Assembly (NCBI RefSeq): GCF_050920415.1
Contig: NZ_CP169309.1
DNA: 64,000 nucleotides
Source: Escherichia coli
GTDB taxonomy: Bacteria > Pseudomonadota > Gammaproteobacteria > Enterobacterales > Enterobacteriaceae
Direction: 5' to 3' (one strand)
In this document: piece after piece, positions 12,264 to 43,835 of the stretch
Layout: each line of letters starts with the position of its first letter
Position numbering within the stretch: position 1 is the stretch's first letter
Made by a program: the position numbers and the translations under genes
Notes under the pieces: model-generated
Told to the model about the DNA's origin: nothing
What the model saw: only the letters and a program-made list of their open reading frames with translations
The model's database searches: none

Positions 12264-12278
12264 TTACCGTTGAGGTAA
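12264..12278. promoter_or_regulatory. operator-like palindrome TTACC GTTGA GGTAA (OL-type)
   Basis: Upstream of leftward early operon; extra TTACC half-site at 12251-12255. Confidence 0.5.
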
Positions 12279-12397: not shown

Positions 12398-12982
12398 TTA
12401 TTGTTTGTTTTTTTCGTTCTGGTTGATGACAAATTCAATGTAACTTTCGATCTTTGCCTTCTCTGTTTCAGGTAACAATGCGTAGCGCGAGCGGTCATAG
12501 TTGATAGTTGCAGGGTCATGCGGATGAATCAGTAGTTCATATCCGTGACGCCCGAATGCAGATGCAACATTCTCCAGGGTGGAAATGGAAACGCTGACCT
12601 CATTGTTTAACAGGCGGCTGATTGTCACCTGGGCGACGCCGGATGCGCGGTGAAGTTTTCCCTGTGTTGAAAGGTCGCGGCTTTCGCTCATCCAGCGTTC
12701 CAGGTTGTGAGCCGCCAGCTGACCAATGTCGCTTGGGCCGACAGGCTGAAAACCTTCCTGAGAAAGCGAGCGATCGATATCAAGCCAGTTACGGGGTTTA
12801 TTGGCGGCAGCTTCAATTTTTCGCGCAACCTGGTCGCCGATAACCTTCTTGCCAAGAGCCCAGCGGTTTACCAGATTTGCCTGAGTTCCAAGTTTTTCTG
12901 CCATCCGCGTCTGAACACCATTGAATTCACGGTCGATCAAGTCGTTGAGATTTTGCCTGCGGACGTCCTGGATACTTTTCAT
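12398..12982 (-). CDS. phage repressor, tandem HTH_XRE domains (CI-like, no peptidase domain)
   Basis: 194 aa; HTH at GVQTRMAEKLGTQANLVNRW and at HRASGVAQVTISRLLNNEVSVSISTLENVA; divergent from Cro-like gene. Confidence 0.65.
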   Translation of the reverse strand: MKSIQDVRRQNLNDLIDREFNGVQTRMAEKLGTQANLVNRWALGKKVIGDQVARKIEAAANKPRNWLDIDRSLSQEGFQPVGPSDIGQLAAHNLERWMSESRDLSTQGKLHRASGVAQVTISRLLNNEVSVSISTLENVASAFGRHGYELLIHPHDPATINYDRSRYALLPETEKAKIESYIEFVINQNEKNKQ

Positions 12983-18020: not shown

Positions 18021-18368
18021 GTGCGATTCGTGGCTAAATCCCCCGCAGAACGCAAAGCCGCGCAGCGCGCTCGGCAGTCCGCCGCCGGTGAGCGCAAAAT
18101 TGAACTGGTGCTGGATAAGCAGGAGCAGGAAATGCTGGAGCGTAACTGTGCCGCCCGTCGCCCTGGTCGTGCGCCGTATGAAATGAGCGAATACATCGCG
18201 TTACTGATCCGCCAGGATGATGCACGCGTGCGCGGGCGTATAAAATCGATCAGCAGAAAACGTTGCGGTAAGTGCGGCGAGAGAGTTCCAGTTAATTCAT
18301 GCCCGTGTAATGGTGACTCGCAATGCTGGGTGACTAAAGGCTGGCATGAAACGAAATTAATAGTGTGA
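18021..18368 (+). CDS. hypothetical Cys-rich protein (start uncertain, GTG 18021 or 18030)
   Basis: ORF ending in palindrome; RKRCGKCGERVPVNSCPCNG cluster. Confidence 0.4.
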   Translation: MRFVAKSPAERKAAQRARQSAAGERKIELVLDKQEQEMLERNCAARRPGRAPYEMSEYIALLIRQDDARVRGRIKSISRKRCGKCGERVPVNSCPCNGDSQCWVTKGWHETKLIV

Positions 18369-18376
18369 CATGTCAC
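18364..18376. repeat. palindrome TGTGACATGTCAC, copy 1
   Basis: Perfect 13-bp palindrome; 42 bp before terminator hairpin. Confidence 0.6.
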
Positions 18377-18417
18377 GAGTAGATTATGCATGATGAATTT
18401 GATGGATTTTGAATACT

Positions 18418-18443
18418 GCCGCCAACTATGGCGGCTTTATTTT
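18418..18443 (+). terminator. rho-independent terminator before packaging operon
   Basis: gccgcc-aactat-ggcggc then TTTATTTT. Confidence 0.65.
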
Positions 18444-18454
18444 GCATGGTACTA

Positions 18455-18469
18455 TTACCACAACGGTAA
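18455..18469. promoter_or_regulatory. operator-like palindrome TTACC ACAAC GGTAA upstream of terS
   Basis: Flanked by partial half-sites (CTATTACCAC repeated). Confidence 0.5.
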
Positions 18470-18486
18470 CTATTACCACGGTGGTT

Positions 18487-19083
18487 ATGATGCCTGCTGA
18501 ACCTAAAACCTATAAACGCAAATCAACGCAATTTAAGCCGCTCACAGCAATGCAGGAGGCTTATTGCCAGTCATACATCAAAACGCCTGAAAACCAGACT
18601 CAGGCAGCGATTAACGCAGGATTCTCCCCAAACACAGCGGCAGTTAAAGCCAGTGTCATGATGCGCGATGAACGCATTCAGAAACGGATTGCCGAGTTGA
18701 TGGAGGAGCGCAACAAACGAATGCGCGTCAGTGCTGATTACGTTCTCATGCGCCTGGTGGAGATCGACCAGATGGACGTGATCGACATCCTCAACGACGA
18801 TGGGAGCCTTAAACCAATCCGTGAGTGGCCGAAAATCTGGCGCACTACGCTTAGTGGCTTTGATCTGTCGTCGACCATCATGAACATGAACGAGGATTCG
18901 ATAGAGACAATCCTCAAAAAAATTAAATGGCCTGACAAGGTGAAGAACCTTGAGCTGATTGGTAAGCATGTTGATGTCAACGCGTTCAAAGAACGTCTGG
19001 ATGTTAATGTGAATGTGACAATTGCTGATCGCATAGCAGCAGCCAGGAAGCGACTCAAAGAACGTCAGGATGGTAATCAGTGA
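18487..19083 (+). CDS. terminase small subunit
   Basis: 198 aa directly upstream of and overlapping large terminase; HTH-like N-terminus. Confidence 0.6.
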   Translation: MMPAEPKTYKRKSTQFKPLTAMQEAYCQSYIKTPENQTQAAINAGFSPNTAAVKASVMMRDERIQKRIAELMEERNKRMRVSADYVLMRLVEIDQMDVIDILNDDGSLKPIREWPKIWRTTLSGFDLSSTIMNMNEDSIETILKKIKWPDKVKNLELIGKHVDVNAFKERLDVNVNVTIADRIAAARKRLKERQDGNQ

Positions 19084-20555
19084 CAGATACAGCGTTATCT
19101 CCTGAAGAGCAGTTGATCGAGGATATTGCAGGGTTCACTCACGATCCGCTTGGCTATGCCCTCTATGCGTTCCCGTGGGGGGAAGAAGGGACTGAACTGG
19201 CACATGCTACCGGCCCACGTCAGTGGCAGGCTGATGCGTTCCGAGAGATACGTGATCACCTGCAGAATCCAGCGACGCGCTATCAGCCGCTTATGCTGGC
19301 ACGCGCTTCTGGTCACGGTATTGGTAAATCCGCATTCATCTCAATGCTGATCAACTGGGGCATGTCCACTTGCGAGGATTGTAAGGTCGTGGTGACCGCC
19401 AACACCGACAACCAGCTACGAACGAAGACCTGGCCGGAAATTATCAAGTGGTCGAACCTTGCTATCACGAAAGACTGGTTTACCTGTACCGCTACCGCGA
19501 TGTACAGCAATGATCCTGGGCACGACAAGCGGTGGCGAGCTGACGCAATCCCCTGGTCTGAGCACAACACTGAGGCATTCGCCGGACTACACAACGAGCG
19601 CAAACGCATCATCGTGGTATTCGATGAAGCGTCGAACATTGCGGATCTGGTGTGGGAAGTTGCTGAGGGTGCGCTTACGGACGAAGACACTGAGATTATC
19701 TGGGTGGCGTTCGGAAACCCTACACGTAACACCGGGCGTTTCCGCGAATGTTTCCGCAAATATAAACACCGCTGGAAAACTGCGCAGATTGACAGCCGGA
19801 CGGTGGAAGGCACTAACAAACAGCAGTTGCAGAAATGGGTTGATGACTACGGGGAAGACAGCGACTTCGTTAAAATCCGTGTGCGCGGCATATTCCCGGA
19901 TGCATCTGAATTGCAGTTTATCCCTACCGGACTTACTGACGAGGCAATGAAACGGGTGGTAACCGCTGCGCAGGTTGCACATGCTCCGGTGATAATCGGC
20001 GTTGACCCGGCATACTCCGGCGTTGATGACGCTGTGATATACCTGCGGCAGGGGCTGCATAGTAAGGTGCTGTGGACCGGCAACAAGACCACTGATGATC
20101 TGATTATGGCGAAGCGTATCGCTGACTTTGAAGACCAGTATCAGGCTGACGCGGTGTTCATCGACTTCGGTTACGGTACCGGGCTGAAGTCAATCGGTGA
20201 CGGTTGGGGGCGCACATGGCAACTTGTTCCGTTCGGTGGCGCGTCTACTGACCCGCAGATGCTCAACAAGCGTGGGGAGATGTTCAACTCATGCAAGACA
20301 TGGCTGAGGCTGGGCGGCATGCTGGATGACCAGGAAACAGCGGACGACCTGTCGGCGGCAGAGTACAAAGTTCGAGTGGACGGTAAAATCGTTATCGAAC
20401 CGAAGGAAGATATCAAGGAGCGGCTTGGGCGTTCGCCGGGTAAAGGCGATGCGCTACTGCTGACGTTTGCGTTCCCTGTGTCTAAGCGTCTGCGAATTCC
20501 CGGGCAGCAGAACCAGCAAGGCAAGGCCATTACAGATTACGATCCCTATGCTTAA
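19080..20555 (+). CDS. terminase large subunit
   Basis: 491 aa; ATPase then nuclease domain arrangement, position after terS. Confidence 0.8.
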   Translation: MTDTALSPEEQLIEDIAGFTHDPLGYALYAFPWGEEGTELAHATGPRQWQADAFREIRDHLQNPATRYQPLMLARASGHGIGKSAFISMLINWGMSTCEDCKVVVTANTDNQLRTKTWPEIIKWSNLAITKDWFTCTATAMYSNDPGHDKRWRADAIPWSEHNTEAFAGLHNERKRIIVVFDEASNIADLVWEVAEGALTDEDTEIIWVAFGNPTRNTGRFRECFRKYKHRWKTAQIDSRTVEGTNKQQLQKWVDDYGEDSDFVKIRVRGIFPDASELQFIPTGLTDEAMKRVVTAAQVAHAPVIIGVDPAYSGVDDAVIYLRQGLHSKVLWTGNKTTDDLIMAKRIADFEDQYQADAVFIDFGYGTGLKSIGDGWGRTWQLVPFGGASTDPQMLNKRGEMFNSCKTWLRLGGMLDDQETADDLSAAEYKVRVDGKIVIEPKEDIKERLGRSPGKGDALLLTFAFPVSKRLRIPGQQNQQGKAITDYDPYA

Positions 20556-20605
20556 TCCGTTAGCGGGGATAATGACGGAGATATCCTCTGGTGAGGATAA
20601 AACAA

Positions 20606-20629
20606 AGCCAGCTCATCGGCTGGCTGTTT
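20606..20629 (+). terminator. terminator after terminase
   Basis: agccagc-tcatcg-gctggct hairpin, short T-run. Confidence 0.5.
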
Positions 20630-20641
20630 GTGACATGTCAC
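20629..20641. repeat. palindrome TGTGACATGTCAC, copy 2
   Basis: Perfect 13-bp palindrome abutting terminator. Confidence 0.6.
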
Positions 20642-20645
20642 GGTG

Positions 20646-21017
20646 TTATTGCTCGCTTAACTTCTGCTTCAGCAAGTAACCTTCAAGCATCCAGATTTTG
20701 TTTACAGCATTCTGCCGGGCAATCTTCCGACCAATTTCCGCATCAAAGTTTTCCGGGCTTGCACAGGCGCTCTCTCCGGTGACGGTGAAGCCATTGCGCA
20801 GCACCAGAACGCAGAACGTCAGCAGAGAAAGTGATTCGTGCGGCTGGTAGTTTACCTCTCCGCCAGTATGTTTCGCTTTTATGGCTACGCCAAAGATACC
20901 ATCTTCTGCTGTGAAATATGCCTCCTGAGCAATAATACTCTCGATATGGTCTGGCGTAACGCGCGGCGCGGCTAAACCTTTAGCCTGAATTTCAGATTCA
21001 ATGTCTTTGTCACTCAT
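20646..21017 (-). CDS. hypothetical protein (opposite-strand moron between terminase and tRNA)
   Basis: 123 aa MSDKDIESEIQAKGLAAPRVTPDHI...; family not recognised. Confidence 0.5.
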   Translation of the reverse strand: MSDKDIESEIQAKGLAAPRVTPDHIESIIAQEAYFTAEDGIFGVAIKAKHTGGEVNYQPHESLSLLTFCVLVLRNGFTVTGESACASPENFDAEIGRKIARQNAVNKIWMLEGYLLKQKLSEQ

Positions 21018-21032
21018 AGTCTAATCTCACCT

Positions 21033-21060
21033 TAAAAAAATGCCCGGCGAACCGGGCGAA
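21033..21060 (-). terminator. terminator for tRNA transcript
   Basis: minus-strand cgcccgg-ttcg-ccgggc hairpin then TTTTTTT. Confidence 0.55.
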
Positions 21061-21220
21061 CTGGAAGCAATGAGTTATGCCTTCCGTGGCTGTACTGGTT
21101 TACAGCATGAAGCCATCGCAATGGCGTCCTGCTGTAAAAAGGGCGGTGATAGTCCTTCAAGGGAAACCATCACCGCCAAGCCCCTGGAACTTCTGGCATC
21201 ACGGTCCTTAGGCGTGATTC

Positions 21221-21297
21221 TGGCGTGGCATGCAGGATTCGAACCTGCGACCGACCGCTTAGAAGGCGGTTGCTCTGTCCAACTGAGCTAATGCCAC
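21221..21297 (-). tRNA. tRNA-Arg (anticodon UCU)
   Basis: Minus-strand cloverleaf: acceptor GTGGCAT/ATGCCAC, anticodon loop CUUCUAA, T-arm GGTTCGAATCC, 3' CCA. Confidence 0.85.
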
Positions 21298-21619
21298 AAC
21301 GCTGAGAGCACTTAGCCTGTTAAGGCGCCACACTTTGTCGCGGCTCCATAAATGCTCTCATCGTTGCACCCTCGTCTCTTCCGAGGCGTCACACCGAATC
21401 GCCGGGATGGTGAATCCCCGTGCGCGGAATAAAACCGCTCGACTTGCACATTCCGGCTACCTGGTTCGTTTGCCCGAGCAAGGGAGGGTGCCCATTAAAC
21501 GTATCCAGACCGCTATCGGCGCATGTGCCATACGCCGTACTGCTCAAAATAAAATCTCACTCCACCTGTTCAATTTAACGACAAGCCAGTCAGGTTAATA
21601 ACAGGAATGCACTCTCTGC

Positions 21620-21634
21620 TTACCTGAAAGGTAA
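21620..21634. promoter_or_regulatory. operator-like palindrome TTACC TGAAA GGTAA ahead of virion operon
   Basis: ~90 bp upstream of ORF 21725. Confidence 0.5.
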
Positions 21635-21724
21635 TAATTCGTGCGTTAAATGTCAACTGTCTACGATAAATAAATCATATGTGGTTAAATTGGTAATAAT
21701 TTAATTGCGTACGGAGTCATTGAT

Positions 21725-21931
21725 ATGTGCATGGGTAGCTCACCATCAGTGCCTGCAACACCAGAAGTTCAGGCAGCACCACAGGAGCAGGATGCCGCCG
21801 TTGTTGATGCCCGCGACGAAGAAACACGTCGCCGTCGCGCTGCTGCTGGTCGTAGTTCTACGCTGCTTACCGGTTCTCAGGGTGACACATCAACCGCTAA
21901 TACCAGCGGTAAAACGCTGCTTGGTCAGTAA
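21725..21931 (+). CDS. small protein preceding portal
   Basis: 68 aa; GGAG RBS with same ccggagtcattga leader as portal. Confidence 0.4.
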   Translation: MCMGSSPSVPATPEVQAAPQEQDAAVVDARDEETRRRRAAAGRSSTLLTGSQGDTSTANTSGKTLLGQ

Positions 21932-21945
21932 CCGGAGTCATTGAA

Positions 21946-23625
21946 ATGGCGGAAACAACTAAAGAGCGATTGAACAAACAGTTCGCACAACTTGAAAGCG
22001 AGCGTCAGTCGTTCGAGCCGCACTGGCGCGAGTTGAGTGATTACATCAACCCGCGTGGTTCCCGCTTTCTGACTTCTGAGGTCAACCGTAACGATCGACG
22101 CAATACACGCATTATTGATTCGACCGGGACTATGGCGGCGCGCACTCTCGCCAGCGGCATGATGTCAGGCATCACAAGCCCCGCGCGTCCGTGGTTTCGC
22201 CTGGCTACGCCAGATCCTGAAATGATGGATTATGGCCCTGTTAAGTTGTGGCTTGAGGCGGTGCAGAACCGCATGAACGATATGTTCAATAAGTCGAATC
22301 TCTATCAGTCGCTGCCGCAGTTATACGGAAGCCTCGGCACATACAGCACTGGTGCAATGGCGGTACTGGAGGATGACGATGACATCATTCGCACAATGCC
22401 ATTCCCGATAGGCAGTTACTACCTGGCTAACTCACCTCGTGGCAGTGTGGACACCTGTTTTCGCAAGTTCTCTATGACTGTTCGTCAGCTTGTTCAGGAG
22501 TTCGGGCTAAATAACGTCAGCGAATCCGTAAAAAGCATGTGGGAAAGCGGCACCTACGAGAAGTGGATTGAAGTGATGCATTCGGTTTACCCGAACATTG
22601 ACCGCGATACATCGAAGCTGGATAGCAAGAACAAGCCATTCAAATCGGTTTATTACGAGGTTGGCGGTGATAACGACAAGTTGTTGCGTGAGTCAGGATT
22701 CGATGAGTTTCCAATTATGGCTCCGCGCTGGGAAGTTAACGGCGAAGATGTTTATGGATCATCATGCCCGGGTATGCTGGCGCTTGGACCTGTTAAGGCA
22801 TTGCAGCTTCTCCAGAAGCGCAAGTCGCAGTTGATTGATAAAGCCACCAATCCGCCGATGATTGCTCCGACTTCCCTCAAGAATCAGCGCGCCTCCCTTC
22901 TTCCTGGCGACATCACGTATATCGATCAGATTACTGGTCAGGATGGTTTCAGGCCTGCTTATCTGGTTAACCCCAGTACAGCAGATCTGGTGGCAGACAT
23001 TCAGGACACTCGTCAAATCATTAACAGTGCCTACTTTGTCGATCTGTTCATGATGTTGCAGAACATCAATACCCGTTCGATGCCTGTTGAAGCGGTGATC
23101 GAAATGAAAGAAGAAAAACTTCTGATGTTGGGGCCGGTTCTGGAGCGTCTGAACGACGAATGTCTTAATCCTCTCATTGACCGCGCTTTCTCGATGATGG
23201 TGCGTAAAAACATGCTGCCGCCCCCGCCTGACGCGATGGAAGGTATGCCCCTGAAGGTCGAATACATTTCCGTCATGGCTCAGGCGCAGAAGTCTATCGG
23301 CCTGTCCAGTCTGGCGTCTACGGTCAACTTCATTGGTCAACTTGCGCAAGCGAAACCAGAAGCTCTCGACAAACTCAACGTTGATCAGGCAATCGATGCA
23401 TTCGCTGATATGTCCGGAGTGTCTCCAACCGTCATTGTTCCGCAGGAACAGGTTGAGCAGGCTCGCCAGCAACGGGCACAGCAACAACAGCAGCAACAAA
23501 TGATGGAGATGGGGATGGCGGCGGCACAGGGTGCCAAGACGCTAAGCGAAGCTAAAACTTCGGATCCGAGTGTTTTGTCAGCTATGGCGAATGCAGTTAG
23601 TGGTCAGGGTGGGCAATCACAATGA
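21946..23625 (+). CDS. portal (head-to-tail connector), T7 gp8-like
   Basis: 559 aa; C-terminal QQQ...MEMGMAAAQG tail resembles T7 gp8. Confidence 0.75.
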   Translation: MAETTKERLNKQFAQLESERQSFEPHWRELSDYINPRGSRFLTSEVNRNDRRNTRIIDSTGTMAARTLASGMMSGITSPARPWFRLATPDPEMMDYGPVKLWLEAVQNRMNDMFNKSNLYQSLPQLYGSLGTYSTGAMAVLEDDDDIIRTMPFPIGSYYLANSPRGSVDTCFRKFSMTVRQLVQEFGLNNVSESVKSMWESGTYEKWIEVMHSVYPNIDRDTSKLDSKNKPFKSVYYEVGGDNDKLLRESGFDEFPIMAPRWEVNGEDVYGSSCPGMLALGPVKALQLLQKRKSQLIDKATNPPMIAPTSLKNQRASLLPGDITYIDQITGQDGFRPAYLVNPSTADLVADIQDTRQIINSAYFVDLFMMLQNINTRSMPVEAVIEMKEEKLLMLGPVLERLNDECLNPLIDRAFSMMVRKNMLPPPPDAMEGMPLKVEYISVMAQAQKSIGLSSLASTVNFIGQLAQAKPEALDKLNVDQAIDAFADMSGVSPTVIVPQEQVEQARQQRAQQQQQQQMMEMGMAAAQGAKTLSEAKTSDPSVLSAMANAVSGQGGQSQ

Positions 23626-23918
23626 CAGATTACGAAGACGATCAACTGAAAGAAGAAAACGCCCGTAAGCAACGTGACATGGCACAACGTGAAATTGATG
23701 ACATTCGCTTTGTCATGAGCAGTGAACAGGGGCGTCGCGTTGTCTGGTCTGTGCTGGAGAAAGGCCGGGTGTTTTCCGCTATCTCTCCGATGGATGCTAT
23801 GGCAATGGCATTTAATGAGGGGCAACGCAATCTGGCGCTGGAACTGTTTCAGCGCGTTATGGCGCATTGCCCTGAACAGTATTTGAAGATGGCCAAAGAG
23901 GCCAGTGAACAGGAGTGA
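23622..23918 (+). CDS. hypothetical protein
   Basis: 98 aa, overlaps portal stop by 4 bp. Confidence 0.45.
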   Translation: MTDYEDDQLKEENARKQRDMAQREIDDIRFVMSSEQGRRVVWSVLEKGRVFSAISPMDAMAMAFNEGQRNLALELFQRVMAHCPEQYLKMAKEASEQE

Positions 23919-39195: not shown

Positions 39196-39209
39196 TGTGA
39201 CATGTCACA
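39196..39209. repeat. palindrome TGTGACATGTCACA, copy 3
   Basis: Perfect 14-bp palindrome immediately before terminator. Confidence 0.6.
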
Positions 39210-39684: not shown

Positions 39685-41940
39685 ATGACGGTCTCAACCG
39701 AAGTTGACCACAACGAATACACAGGCAATGGCGTTACGACTTCATTCCCTTATACCTTTAGGGTTTTCAAGGAATCTGATCTGGTAGTGCAGGTGGTTGA
39801 CCTTGACGAAAATATCGCTGTGCTGGCTCTGGATACTGATTACACTGTCACTGGGGCTGGTGGATATAACGGCGGTAATGTAATTCTGTCGAAGGCGTTA
39901 GCTAACGGTTACCAGATTTCTATATCACGAGAGCTCCCGGTTACGCAGGAAACTGATTTGCGTAATCAGGGGAAGTTCTTTGCAGAAGTGCATGAGGATG
40001 CTTTTGATAAGCTAACGATGCTGATCCAGCAGGTTCGAAGTTGGTTTAGCTTGGCGCTGCGCAAGCCGTCATTCGTGGCAAATTATTATAACGCGCTGAA
40101 CAACTATATTCGAAACCTGAAAGACCCGGTAAACCCGCAGGATGCATCCACAAAGAATTATGTGGACAGTACGGTTTTATCGAATATCGACCATACAATC
40201 CGTGTTCCTGATTCTTATATCGATCCGCTGCCACCTCTCGCTCAACTTGAAGGAAGCATAATCGGCATCGCCAACGGTAAGCCCGTTCCGTTCCCTGTGC
40301 CTTCAGGAACGGCGGCTGACGTATTCAACCAGTTGGCCAGCAGCGCTGACGGGAAAGGTGATGCGCTGATAACAGTGAAGCAGCCTTACCAGGGGGCAAT
40401 TTCTCTTTCGCAGCATATAAAAAATGCACAAGCCATTAGTGTTGTTGATTTTGGAGCGACAATTGATGGAACGCTTCACCCTTTAAGCGAGATATTTTCA
40501 ACACTATCAGCTGCTCAGATGGTATATCCATTTGTTTCATCTCTATCTCAATCTGTTGATTATGCTGCGCTTCAGTCCGCATGTAACACGGGAAAAACAG
40601 TGCTTATTCCAAAGGGAACTGGTTACTATAATTCAACTATTTTTCTGAAAAACTCCGTTAGGATTGTTGGAGAGGGAACTGATACAATAAATAGAGCGCA
40701 ATCATTTATGTCTATTGTTGGTAATATTTCAGCCTTTGCTTTAGATCAAGGTGATTCCCTATCGACAAAAATGATTCAGATTTTTATTGATGGTCTTTAT
40801 ATTTTCTATGATCCAGGAACCACACCAACGAATCCTGAAAATGATGGTGGGAAAATTGCATTTAATTTCTACTCGACAATTCCAAATTCAACAAGCTTGG
40901 AAATGTCTGAAATTAAAAACTGTACAGTTCATGGTGCATGGTCATGCTTTAATGATCAGACTGGCACATACTTGACAAAACTTACGAATGTGTGGGCCAG
41001 AAACTGCCATAATGGTTTTACAAAAGGAACTGGCACTACCATTCTGATGGAAAGATGTTATACATCTGGATGTATATCACCATATCAGTTTGGTTCTGTC
41101 TTTGCAGCTACAATGATTAACTGTGCCATGGATGGATCAAATATTTCGTTAAACGCAGGTTCGCTTGGTGGGGCTGGCGTTCATGTTCTTAACACACATA
41201 GTTTTAACATTATTGGTTTTGATGCGGAGGGTAACACCATCTCTACAGATGGTTATGGAGAGGCAGCACTATTCCATTTCGAAAATAGTAGTGGTGGCAT
41301 TTCTGGCCTGACTGCACATCAGAACAGCATGCGAAGTGTTGCGCCAAGTGATGCTGGTGTAGTTTCCTACATCAGGGCGTCAGGTAGCAGCGATGTTAAA
41401 ATTGAGTCATCAGAAGATGATTTATCTGACACCAACACAGTTGCATATACTGGGTCTGGGTATCCCATCATGCTACATGCAACTGACACAGCTAAAATAA
41501 GCGTCTTTAATAGCAGATTCAGGGCGACTACCACTGGTACCCCTGTCTTAAGTACGCTAAGTACTGGTGATGTATCATGGTATGACTGCCCTAAAAAAAC
41601 AGGACTTATCGTAGATGGTTATTCACAAATAACATCTAAGGAAGGATTGCAAACATCATGCTTCTATACCAGTAAAGGCTCTACTGCTGTTGCTGAAAAT
41701 ACTCCGACAACACTTTTCTCTCTACCAGATTCGCAAGGTACTTACATTATTAGCGTATGGGTGGCTGGAAGCGGAGAAAATTACGCATCTACACAACTGG
41801 CAATGTATGATGGAGATAAGCTAATTCTTGTTGCGTTAAAAATAGCAGCATTTCTTAGTTTTTCAGCAACAGGGAGAATTGTAACCATTACAAGCCAGGT
41901 GGCAGGCACTTTAAACTGGACTTACACTAAAATAGGTTGA
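39685..41940 (+). CDS. tail fibre/tailspike with T7 gp17-like N-terminal adaptor domain
   Basis: 751 aa; N-terminal ...YTGNGVTTSFPYTFRVFKESDLVV...DTDYTV pattern; Gly/Ser/Thr-rich C-terminal region. Confidence 0.7.
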   Translation: MTVSTEVDHNEYTGNGVTTSFPYTFRVFKESDLVVQVVDLDENIAVLALDTDYTVTGAGGYNGGNVILSKALANGYQISISRELPVTQETDLRNQGKFFAEVHEDAFDKLTMLIQQVRSWFSLALRKPSFVANYYNALNNYIRNLKDPVNPQDASTKNYVDSTVLSNIDHTIRVPDSYIDPLPPLAQLEGSIIGIANGKPVPFPVPSGTAADVFNQLASSADGKGDALITVKQPYQGAISLSQHIKNAQAISVVDFGATIDGTLHPLSEIFSTLSAAQMVYPFVSSLSQSVDYAALQSACNTGKTVLIPKGTGYYNSTIFLKNSVRIVGEGTDTINRAQSFMSIVGNISAFALDQGDSLSTKMIQIFIDGLYIFYDPGTTPTNPENDGGKIAFNFYSTIPNSTSLEMSEIKNCTVHGAWSCFNDQTGTYLTKLTNVWARNCHNGFTKGTGTTILMERCYTSGCISPYQFGSVFAATMINCAMDGSNISLNAGSLGGAGVHVLNTHSFNIIGFDAEGNTISTDGYGEAALFHFENSSGGISGLTAHQNSMRSVAPSDAGVVSYIRASGSSDVKIESSEDDLSDTNTVAYTGSGYPIMLHATDTAKISVFNSRFRATTTGTPVLSTLSTGDVSWYDCPKKTGLIVDGYSQITSKEGLQTSCFYTSKGSTAVAENTPTTLFSLPDSQGTYIISVWVAGSGENYASTQLAMYDGDKLILVALKIAAFLSFSATGRIVTITSQVAGTLNWTYTKIG

Positions 41941-41975: not shown

Positions 41976-43835
41976 TTAAAAAATAAATGGCTTGTCATTT
42001 TTTAATTTTTTCCCAAACTCCCTTGAGCCTTCTAGAGTGAAATGACTATTATCAAAGTAAAGATAATCACCTTTAGTAGAAAGGATGTCACAATTCATTG
42101 ACTTTCCGCACTGCTCGGCAAGCGTATCTATGTATTTATACGAATGCTGGTTGCTACCAAGATAGCCTTTTATCGTATTGTTAATTTCAACTCTACTATT
42201 GTCATAATACTTTTTAGAGTATTTATTTATCCCATCAACTGTGTTTACGCCAGATTTAAAAGCAGACTTAATTATTTCCATTGGCTGTGCCGTAAACTTC
42301 ATCTTAGGCCCAAATACAATAACTTCTCCTTTAGTCCTCTCCTGTATTTTGCCTATAGAGTAAAGCATCCCGAACAGATCGCCAACGCCATAATCATCAT
42401 GAAGGATTATAATGTTAGCTTCAGCTATGGCTGGAGATGAGATTACGTCATTGAATATTTTTTTGCACTTTTCTACATAGGGCATGTCGTTTGGTGTATA
42501 ACCAAAGTTTGAACATAAGTTTGTAGTTCTTATATAAGTTATATCACCCTTCATCCCATTTTCAGTAAGTGCATAAGTCAGATCTATGCCATGAGAATTA
42601 CCGATTATTACTATTTTTTTGTCACCTGTCTTCGGTACAGGGTGAGGCTTGTCTCCATCAACCCAATACCTGTTCATTTGTTCTTTTAGCTGTTCGGACG
42701 TCATTGTGGCAAACGAAAACCTTGATGGAATTCCAGATAGCAATAGTACAGCGAAGCACAAACCAACTACACCACCTACAGGTAGCACGATTGAAGTTAA
42801 TTCATTCAAGGACCTGCCGTTTTTAAATTTTGAAAGTGCCTTTCTTGAAGGGTTTTCAATTAAATAAAATGATGCGGCACCAATAAGAATTGATAAGGCA
42901 ACACCTGATACTGTATAAACCATATCATCCATCTTATTCATTGACATATATACAACTATGGGCCAGTGAACCAGATATACCGAGTATGAAATTTTCCCAA
43001 CCCATTGAGATAATGCATTATCAAGTAATAGGTTATCTTTACATCCAAGATAAATGACAAAGAAAGTAGAAACGACTGGTATTAAGGCAAGATACCCAGG
43101 CCACTTCATTAAGCTGTTAAGCAAGACTATCCCCGATACTGCAAAGGCTATGGCAATCCATCTAAATACAGCAGTGCGTTTTGAATTTTGTATAGTAGGA
43201 AGAAGGTAGGCAAGGCCGCCAGCCAGCATCTCCCAAGCTCTGCTTGACAGAAGATAAAATGCAGCGCCCTGATTATTATAAGAAAGATACACTGAGGCAG
43301 TAAATGATATAATTGCAAGGATGGCAACAACATACCTTATATGCTTAGCGCCCAATAGCTTTGCAATCACCATCATTATGATTGGATATACCATGTAAAA
43401 CTGCCACTCTACAGAAAGCGACCATGTATGAAGAAGCCATTTCTGCTTTGATGCAGTATCAAAATAATCAATGCTATGGTAATACTCAACGTTTGAGAAA
43501 AATAAAAGGCTACTTCTTACGTGTTGAGCCAGGTATTCATATTCAGAAGGTAAAAGAATGAAGTAACCAACTATCAGAACAGCAACTGAAACTACAGTTA
43601 AAGCAGGTATAATTCTTCTTGCCCTATCAAGATAAAATCCTAACAGTGAAAAGTTTCCATTAGATATCTTTGTGTAAATTATTCCAGTCATCAGATACCC
43701 TGATATAACAAAGAATATATCTACGCCTGAAAATCCACCAGAGAACCCTTTGACTCCGAAGTGATAAAGGACAACTGCCATAACAGCAATAGCCCTAAGC
43801 CCGCCTATATCTGTTCTGTATTTTAAAGAAGACAT
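41976..43835 (-). CDS. O-antigen acyltransferase (acyltransferase-3 membrane domain + C-terminal SGNH-like domain, OafA-like)
   Basis: 619 aa; N-terminal multi-TM with ...AVVLYHF...DIFFVISGYL...; lysogenic-conversion candidate. Confidence 0.75.
   Translation of the reverse strand: MSSLKYRTDIGGLRAIAVMAVVLYHFGVKGFSGGFSGVDIFFVISGYLMTGIIYTKISNGNFSLLGFYLDRARRIIPALTVVSVAVLIVGYFILLPSEYEYLAQHVRSSLLFFSNVEYYHSIDYFDTASKQKWLLHTWSLSVEWQFYMVYPIIMMVIAKLLGAKHIRYVVAILAIISFTASVYLSYNNQGAAFYLLSSRAWEMLAGGLAYLLPTIQNSKRTAVFRWIAIAFAVSGIVLLNSLMKWPGYLALIPVVSTFFVIYLGCKDNLLLDNALSQWVGKISYSVYLVHWPIVVYMSMNKMDDMVYTVSGVALSILIGAASFYLIENPSRKALSKFKNGRSLNELTSIVLPVGGVVGLCFAVLLLSGIPSRFSFATMTSEQLKEQMNRYWVDGDKPHPVPKTGDKKIVIIGNSHGIDLTYALTENGMKGDITYIRTTNLCSNFGYTPNDMPYVEKCKKIFNDVISSPAIAEANIIILHDDYGVGDLFGMLYSIGKIQERTKGEVIVFGPKMKFTAQPMEIIKSAFKSGVNTVDGINKYSKKYYDNSRVEINNTIKGYLGSNQHSYKYIDTLAEQCGKSMNCDILSTKGDYLYFDNSHFTLEGSREFGKKLKNDKPFIF

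Follow-up and report, generated by a model that had tools for sequence, protein, structure and literature searches.

An Acb4-family gene in an exchangeable slot between terL and tRNA-Arg of a phiV10-like Escherichia coli prophage

The gene and its expression signals

The window analysed here, a 64,000-nt stretch of an E. coli chromosome, carries a phiV10-like (Uetakevirus) prophage integrated adjoining guaA. Between the prophage genes for the large terminase subunit (terL) and a tRNA-Arg lies a minus-strand CDS of the PF13876 (Acb4) family (20646..21017, ATG start, TAA stop) that encodes a 123-aa protein. We reproduced the coordinates, strand and length given in a preliminary description of this DNA, and our translation is the one quoted there. 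The ORF is a real gene and not a chance reading frame. Between the window and the homologue of phage epsilon15, 39 of the 177 nucleotides in the last 59 codons are changed, with only 4 residue changes; alleles found at the same position in close relatives differ by up to 17 nucleotides over these codons, with 0–2 amino-acid changes. Because so few residues change despite so many nucleotide substitutions, we conclude from these alignments that the C-terminal half of the protein is under strong purifying selection.

The tRNA-Arg gene (anticodon UCU; 21221..21297, minus strand; ARAGORN; Rfam tRNA model, 72.2 bits) is located upstream of the ORF and was the only match in an Rfam scan of positions 20400..22000. 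The preliminary description had presented the 123-aa gene as antisense to all the late genes around it. The ORF does lie on the minus strand, but the tRNA-Arg shares that strand, so the two are better regarded as one leftward unit than as a case of an isolated antisense gene. The minus-strand leader between tRNA and start codon contains a hairpin with arms at 21099-21116 and 21121-21138, a terminator-like hairpin with a 14-bp stem followed by CTTTTT (21142-21177) and, in a terminator scan, a hairpin resembling an intrinsic terminator, GCCCGG-TTCG-CCGGGC with A and seven T behind it (21057..21034). The T-run of the last abuts the Shine-Dalgarno site AAGGTGAG (21033..21026, minus strand), which we read from the sequence 8 nt 5' of the ATG. 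For the entire leader the computed folding energy is –78.4 kcal/mol (z = –3.45 versus shuffled sequences). In epsilon15 the hairpin before the Shine-Dalgarno site reads GCCCAC-TTCG-GTGGGC and is annotated as a rho-independent terminator; its two base-pair changes relative to the window are compensatory, which argues that the hairpin itself is under selection. An 83-aa ORF on the plus strand (21040..21291), annotated as PhiV10p04 in phiV10, overlaps the leader hairpins and the tRNA-Arg in antisense orientation and is most likely a spurious gene call.

On the other side of the gene, the hairpin AGCCAGC...GCTGGCT (20606..20625, both strands) is common to the converging transcripts of terL and the 123-aa gene and has T-rich tails on both strands. 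In the scan it scores as a terminator on the minus strand; in the plus-strand reading GTTTGTG comes after it, and this is where the terL terminator is annotated, on the plus strand, in the phiV10 record. Just 3 nt past the stop codon stands a 14-nt palindrome, TGTGACATGTCACG (plus strand, 20629..20642), which forms part of a conserved 3' boundary described below. The gene is bracketed as the preliminary description had it, with the terL terminator and palindrome on one flank and the tRNA-side terminator on the other. Three near-perfect copies of the palindrome, with the consensus TGTGACATGTCAC(A/G), occur at operon ends in the window (18364..18377, 20629..20642 and 39196..39209) versus 0.27 expected, and a weak copy is found at 23673..23686. 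Each near-perfect copy adjoins an intrinsic-terminator-like hairpin on one strand. A CRP site was considered for the palindrome: its half-sites are CRP-like, but they are spaced by N4 rather than N6, and hence we do not call it a CRP site. The palindrome may serve as a site for a regulator or mark a boundary of recombination.

A sigma-70 scan of the interval between the tRNA, or the upstream terminator, and the ATG found no promoter. A self-contained promoter-gene-terminator arrangement was dropped on these grounds: the terminator at 20606..20625 is present, but an own promoter was not found. The gene appears to use a conserved shared leader for its expression. Upstream of the tRNA we read from the sequence a candidate leftward promoter on the minus strand, TTGACA (21656..21651) and TACCTT (21633..21628) separated by a 17-nt spacer; the scan tool reports an overlapping site, TAGACA-18-AATTAT. 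The candidate –10 element is contained in an operator-like palindrome, TTACCTTTCAGGTAA (TTACC-N5-GGTAA; 21634..21620, minus strand). This motif has seven copies in the window versus 0.13 expected, each 15 nt long, at 12264, 12326, 13038, 15369, 15431, 18455 and 21620, and the repressor binding site annotated in the epsilon15 record has the same motif. The copies flank a gene for an HTH repressor-like protein (12398..12982, minus strand) and precede terS and the portal/tRNA region. This distribution of motifs suggests that the repressor directly controls several operons, late ones included.

The arrangement TTGACA-17-TACCTT plus operator is kept in epsilon15 with a different spacer sequence, and, as epsilon15 has no tRNA, no gene other than the Acb4 homologue lies downstream of the candidate promoter there. 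Given the conserved promoter/operator and the selected hairpin, we propose a single leftward unit, in which the promoter/operator would be followed by a leader of ~320 nt, tRNA-Arg, the hairpins and the 123-aa gene. The conserved leftward promoter, overlapped by the repressor-operator motif, probably drives both the tRNA and the gene. Read-through of the leader terminators, which we infer for expression of the gene, is the weakest link of this account, and two terminator-like hairpins between the candidate promoter and the start codon are odd for a protein that must act stoichiometrically.

One operator copy bears on the annotation of terS. The terS ORF (18409..19083, plus strand) starts with TTG at 18409, as annotated in phiV10 and RefSeq, and the copy at 18455..18469 lies inside it, whereas terS of epsilon15 begins after its operator. 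Hence, the true start is probably later, at an ATG pair near 18487 (MMPAEP...), which would give a protein of ~198 aa.

Relationship to the Acb4 family

The preliminary description could not place the protein in any known family. We found that it covers the whole profile of PF13876 (Phage_gp49_66; N4 Gp49 / Sf6 gene 66; E = 3.3e–35, model positions 1-82 of 82) and matches PHROG 322 at 9.6e–63; its RefSeq name is 'Gp49 family protein'. Relatives number at least 8000 in a 90%-clustered database, all with PF13876, and form 5080 clusters when grouped at 50% identity (E ≤ 1e–3); 623 phage records encode one. An NCBIfam search gave no match, none of the PADLOC defence models matched at E ≤ 1, and no Tad2 match appeared in the Pfam and PDB-sequence searches.

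The founding member of the family, Acb4 (anti-CBASS 4), discovered in Bacillus phage SPO1, is 96 aa long; its tetramer sequesters four 3'3'-cGAMP molecules (PDB 9E4W), and in vivo the protein is enough by itself to overcome a CBASS operon, as shown by Chang et al. (bioRxiv 10.1101/2024.12.30.630793). The same 2024 study identified PF13876 as the Acb4 family, with 1,331 homologues. Eight diverse further homologues were purified, of which 8/8 bind 3'3'-cGAMP and 0/8 c-di-GMP; those from Gram-negative hosts additionally bind 3'3'-cAA, and AF3 gave confident tetramers for all eight modelled (bioRxiv 10.1101/2024.12.30.630793). Table S3 of that work includes the phiV10 protein Q287B5, which is identical to the window protein at 121 of 123 positions, together with the proteins of epsilon15, Sf6 and N4 (bioRxiv 10.1101/2024.12.30.630793). 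On these sequence grounds the 123-aa protein is a member of the published Acb4 family. Since the family is published and a near-identical orthologue stands in its table, the gene itself is already known. The anti-defence function that the preliminary description had guessed at agrees with PF13876 being a family of anti-CBASS sponges, and the protein proved to be neither a virion nor a housekeeping protein.

Structural comparisons agree with this assignment. A single-sequence search of the PDB retrieved 9e4w_A at E = 0.0068. With a profile built from 50 homologues, SPO1-type sequences left out, 9e4w_A was the only significant match (1.4e–7). As the preliminary description had proposed, we ran a structure prediction followed by Foldseek. 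The template-free AlphaFold2 model (pLDDT 93.1, pTM 0.81) retrieves chains of 9E4W as all of its top 13 matches, with probability 1.00. The 123-aa protein folds like the Acb4 protomer: the arrangement is dsRBD-like, with helices flanking a set of three antiparallel beta-strands. Mapping of the 9E4W pocket through the alignment showed that stacking and hydrophobic residues are kept (F48->F77, F62->F91, I66->I95, L89->L116 and V56->C85). In contrast, the guanine-edge reader E49 is replaced by T78, and the phosphate contacts are replaced as well (Y57->A86, T70->I99, K81->M110); the equivalent of K36, another guanine reader of SPO1 Acb4, is ambiguous in the alignment. With the guanine-reading and phosphate-contact residues replaced, ligand preference may differ from that of SPO1 Acb4. 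The loss of guanine-specific contacts would fit the broader specificity of homologues from Gram-negative hosts.

The window protein is 27 residues longer than SPO1 Acb4. It has a conserved N-terminal extension (residues 1-28, consensus IE.EIQAKGLTAPRVTP) and a variable helix/loop insert of ~30 residues between strands beta1 and beta2 (residues ~37-65), both of which SPO1 Acb4 lacks; the conserved core (beta2, beta3 and the long helix) occupies residues 65-123. The two genes also differ in their carriers: SPO1 is a virulent myovirus, whereas the window gene belongs to a temperate phage of a Gram-negative host and is prophage-borne. Acb4 of phage N4 (gp48; the 'N4 Gp49' of the Pfam name) likewise has E. 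coli as its host and is 45% identical to the window protein over 107 residues. It shares the T and C of the window protein at the positions of SPO1 E49 and V56, but its N-terminal extension is shorter by the first ~18 residues, and it has a Cys/Gly-rich tail at the C-terminus instead. Its gene is located in an anti-signalling hot spot of N4-like phages, whereas the window gene adjoins terminase. Knock-down and ectopic expression showed N4 Acb4 to be both necessary and sufficient for the triggering of Panoptes, a guard system that senses depletion of cyclic dinucleotides (PMC12657230).

The phiV10 orthologue named above, PhiV10p03, and the Acb4 homologue of epsilon15, p50, are encoded in the same slot as the window gene. 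The protein of Sf6 gene 66 shares 67% identity with the window protein; over the last 60 residues the two differ in a single conservative R/K change. PhiV10p03, p50 and Sf6 gp66 are hypothetical proteins in public records. Where such records say "hypothetical" or "Gp49 family protein", the label can now read probable anti-CBASS sponge. The corrected label is relevant to phiV10-group phages for E. coli O157 typing and therapy and to predicting which hosts they can overcome.

A slot with exchangeable contents

We fetched 80 viral contigs whose TerL is at least 99% identical to that of the window, and compared the interval between terL and tRNA-Arg, the cargo slot (20556..21220 in the window; loci L005-L084, L003, L004 and the window). 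The slot was measured from the terL stop codon to the tRNA in the 79 loci that have both anchors (78 relatives plus the window). Of the fetched contigs 75 qualified; the other four loci are those of the window, phiV10, SPN1S and one further sequence, and in most of the 79 TerL is ≥99% identical. The shortest slot measures 316 nt and the longest 1127 nt, and there are five alternative contents, one of which is no cargo gene at all. Acb4-family genes occupy 33 of the 79 loci (26 DNA alleles), a gene for a 139/140-aa protein of PHROG 4846 is found at 27, one for a ~272-aa protein of PHROG 4780 with membrane and coiled-coil segments at 10, and one for a 113-aa protein of PHROG 27507 at 5, all on the minus strand. 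The remaining contents, seen at 4/79 loci, are a 316-nt interval with only an 8-codon mini-ORF. At one locus the 140-aa and 113-aa genes stand in tandem, and the slot of Salmonella phage SPN1S contains a lipoprotein gene. In Klebsiella phage ST512-KPC3phi13.3 the slot protein is Tad2-like (PF11195, E = 2.4e–25) and matches Tad2, ModTad2 and AcrIIA7 in the PDB at 1e–13 to 1e–16.

The boundaries of the slot were compared in 14 representative variants. On the 5' side, the tRNA, the hairpins and the GC hairpin with its seven T are kept in every variant. The Shine-Dalgarno sequence is kept or nearly so in 13 of the 14, the exception (L020) being a slot with the 272-aa cargo, and the ATG of the cargo starts within a few bases of this conserved leader. 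On the 3' side, CACCG-TGACATGTCACA-AACAG and the shared terminator follow directly after the stop codon, except in both representatives with the 272-aa cargo (L020 and L079). The ORF is thus swapped exactly between a conserved terminator/Shine-Dalgarno leader and a conserved palindrome/terminator flank. The preliminary description had treated the gene as a moron. In that its presence varies at the same position among close relatives, it is an accessory gene in a variable slot; the promoter of its own that a classical moron has was not found between the upstream terminator and the start codon. A literature search for the slot between terL and tRNA-Arg found no description in the searchable literature. 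The slot polymorphism is the new part of this work, the Acb4 gene itself being of an already published kind, and the slot illustrates neatly how, in nature, one ORF can replace another exactly while the expression signals around it are conserved.

Exchange is also seen within the gene. The Acb4 alleles are mosaic: the N-terminus comes in two types and the insert in at least four, and the C-terminal 59 residues hardly vary; in the window the variable part corresponds to 20831..21017 and the near-invariant part to 20646..20822. This pattern indicates either that recombination has occurred within the gene or that the insert, which lies beside the predicted pocket, is under diversifying pressure.

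In cargo-less slots of 316 nt (L030, L022), the mini-ORF MKYEFDGF stands behind the conserved Shine-Dalgarno site. Its motif, GAATT(C/T)GATGGATTTTGA, is seen again next to the palindrome copy that precedes terS (18390..18415 in the window), and a diverged version follows the Acb4 homologue of epsilon15 (L002 2150..2185). The motif may be left over from the ancestral slot, or it may belong to a repeated element.

The three uncharacterised cargo families gave no Pfam, PADLOC or NCBIfam match of substance. For the 140-aa protein we found no match in Pfam, PDB-sequence, PADLOC or NCBIfam searches; its AF2 model reached a pLDDT of 80.8, and Foldseek against the PDB returned nothing better than E = 5. 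The 113-aa protein has no Pfam or PDB match. PADLOC and NCBIfam matches of the 272-aa protein (SMC, JetC, DndD; 12-21 bits) are weak coiled-coil similarities, which we treated as compositional. Sequence fragments of the uncharacterised cargos were absent from the supplements of the Sorek-lab sponge-discovery preprint.

Two of the slot contents, Acb4 and the Tad2-like protein, belong to known signal-sponge families. Tad2 (PF11195 / DUF2829) is, like Acb4, a small tetrameric signal sponge, but of unrelated fold and family, and it binds gcADPR-type Thoeris signals. In other phages Tad2 is often fused to Acb4, and the two also share anti-signalling hot spots. The hot spot of N4-like phages resembles the present slot in being a defined intergenic position that holds alternative sponge genes (Acb4, Tad2 and others) along with genes of unknown function (bioRxiv 10.64898/2026.06.04.730250). 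The present slot differs in that it belongs to Uetakevirus-like temperate podoviruses and usually a single ORF is exchanged, exactly. It is conceivable, though we would favour the opposite, that the slot is a dedicated, repressor-controlled site for anti-defence cassettes that extends from the conserved terminator/Shine-Dalgarno leader to the TGTGACATGTCACA-plus-terminator flank. If so, the cargos of PHROG 4846, 27507 and 4780 would be candidates for new anti-defence proteins, perhaps even for new signal sponges, and the Acb4 alleles might adjust their ligand range through the hypervariable insert. A short and sharply bounded slot that holds two known signal-sponge families next to three families without a Pfam or defence-model match gives a cheap guilt-by-association route to new immune-evasion genes.

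Proposed role, alternatives and further features of the window

Overall, we suggest that the 123-aa protein is an Acb4-family viral sponge, encoded in an exchangeable slot and expressed under repressor control, that sequesters CBASS signals; we put the probability of this reading at roughly 0.8. Judged by analogy with SPO1 Acb4 and the homologues that were assayed, it would form a homotetramer, with pockets at the subunit interfaces that bind and sequester the cyclic dinucleotides produced by CBASS cyclases on infection (3'3'-cGAMP, and probably also cUA or cAA). The effector of CBASS would then stay inactive, and the phage would complete its cycle. Tetramer formation, ligand binding and specificity, and CBASS inhibition are thus expected of the 123-aa protein from its relatives. 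Its gene would be co-transcribed with the tRNA from the repressor-controlled leftward promoter, with transcription reading through the leader terminators, so that the sponge would be made after infection or induction and not in a stable lysogen; this use of the promoter and this timing are what the arrangement of the predicted signals leads us to expect.

The protein might instead share the family and fold of Acb4 while having another main ligand (of c-di-AMP type, a cyclic trinucleotide, a Thoeris signal or other) or gaining an extra function through its extension. We consider this unlikely, although several observations lean that way. Besides the pocket replacements described above and the broader, 3'3'-cAA-including range of homologues from Gram-negative hosts, an Acb4-Sequestin fusion binds 3'3'-cGAMP only weakly but does bind 2'3'-cAA, and the insert beside strand beta2 is hypervariable among alleles of the same slot. 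Extensions of Acb4 proteins may bring added functions (Chang et al., bioRxiv 10.1101/2024.12.30.630793). However, all eight homologues assayed so far bind 3'3'-cGAMP, and N4 Acb4, which behaves as a cyclic-dinucleotide sponge in vivo, has the same residues at the replaced positions (T55, C62).

A different kind of account makes the gene a moron for lysogenic conversion or host protection: expressed from the prophage, it would aid the lysogen, by excluding phages or modulating the host, rather than help the phage evade immunity. The phage is temperate and sits integrated beside guaA, and its slot also receives cargo that looks membrane- or exclusion-related (the 272-aa protein with transmembrane and coiled-coil segments, the SPN1S lipoprotein). 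Yet no PADLOC defence model matched the protein, and the family has demonstrated anti-defence activity. Moreover, the –10 element of the sole candidate promoter lies inside the repressor-operator motif, which predicts silence in lysogens, and a constitutive sponge would disarm the host's own CBASS and trigger guards of the Panoptes type. We therefore find host protection improbable, clearly more so than a change of ligand. Lower still ranks a role as a dsRBD-like RNA-binding protein acting on the nearby tRNA and leader hairpins or on host RNA; the protomer fold is dsRBD-like, but we give this account hardly any weight beside a sponge for CBASS signals.

Two further features of the window fall outside the slot. 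Just after the tailspike gene (39685..41940) we found a gene for a 619-aa membrane protein of the acyltransferase-3 type (41976..43835, minus strand), which we take to resemble the O-antigen acetyltransferase conversion gene of phiV10-type phages. Farther along, an IS3-family-like transposase pair (49043..50256, minus strand) lies within 47919..51475. Judging from the translations only, it appears to split a host gene of membrane-sensor/EAL-domain type (c-di-GMP phosphodiesterase-like) into an N-terminal part (47919..49040) and an EAL part (50321..51475).
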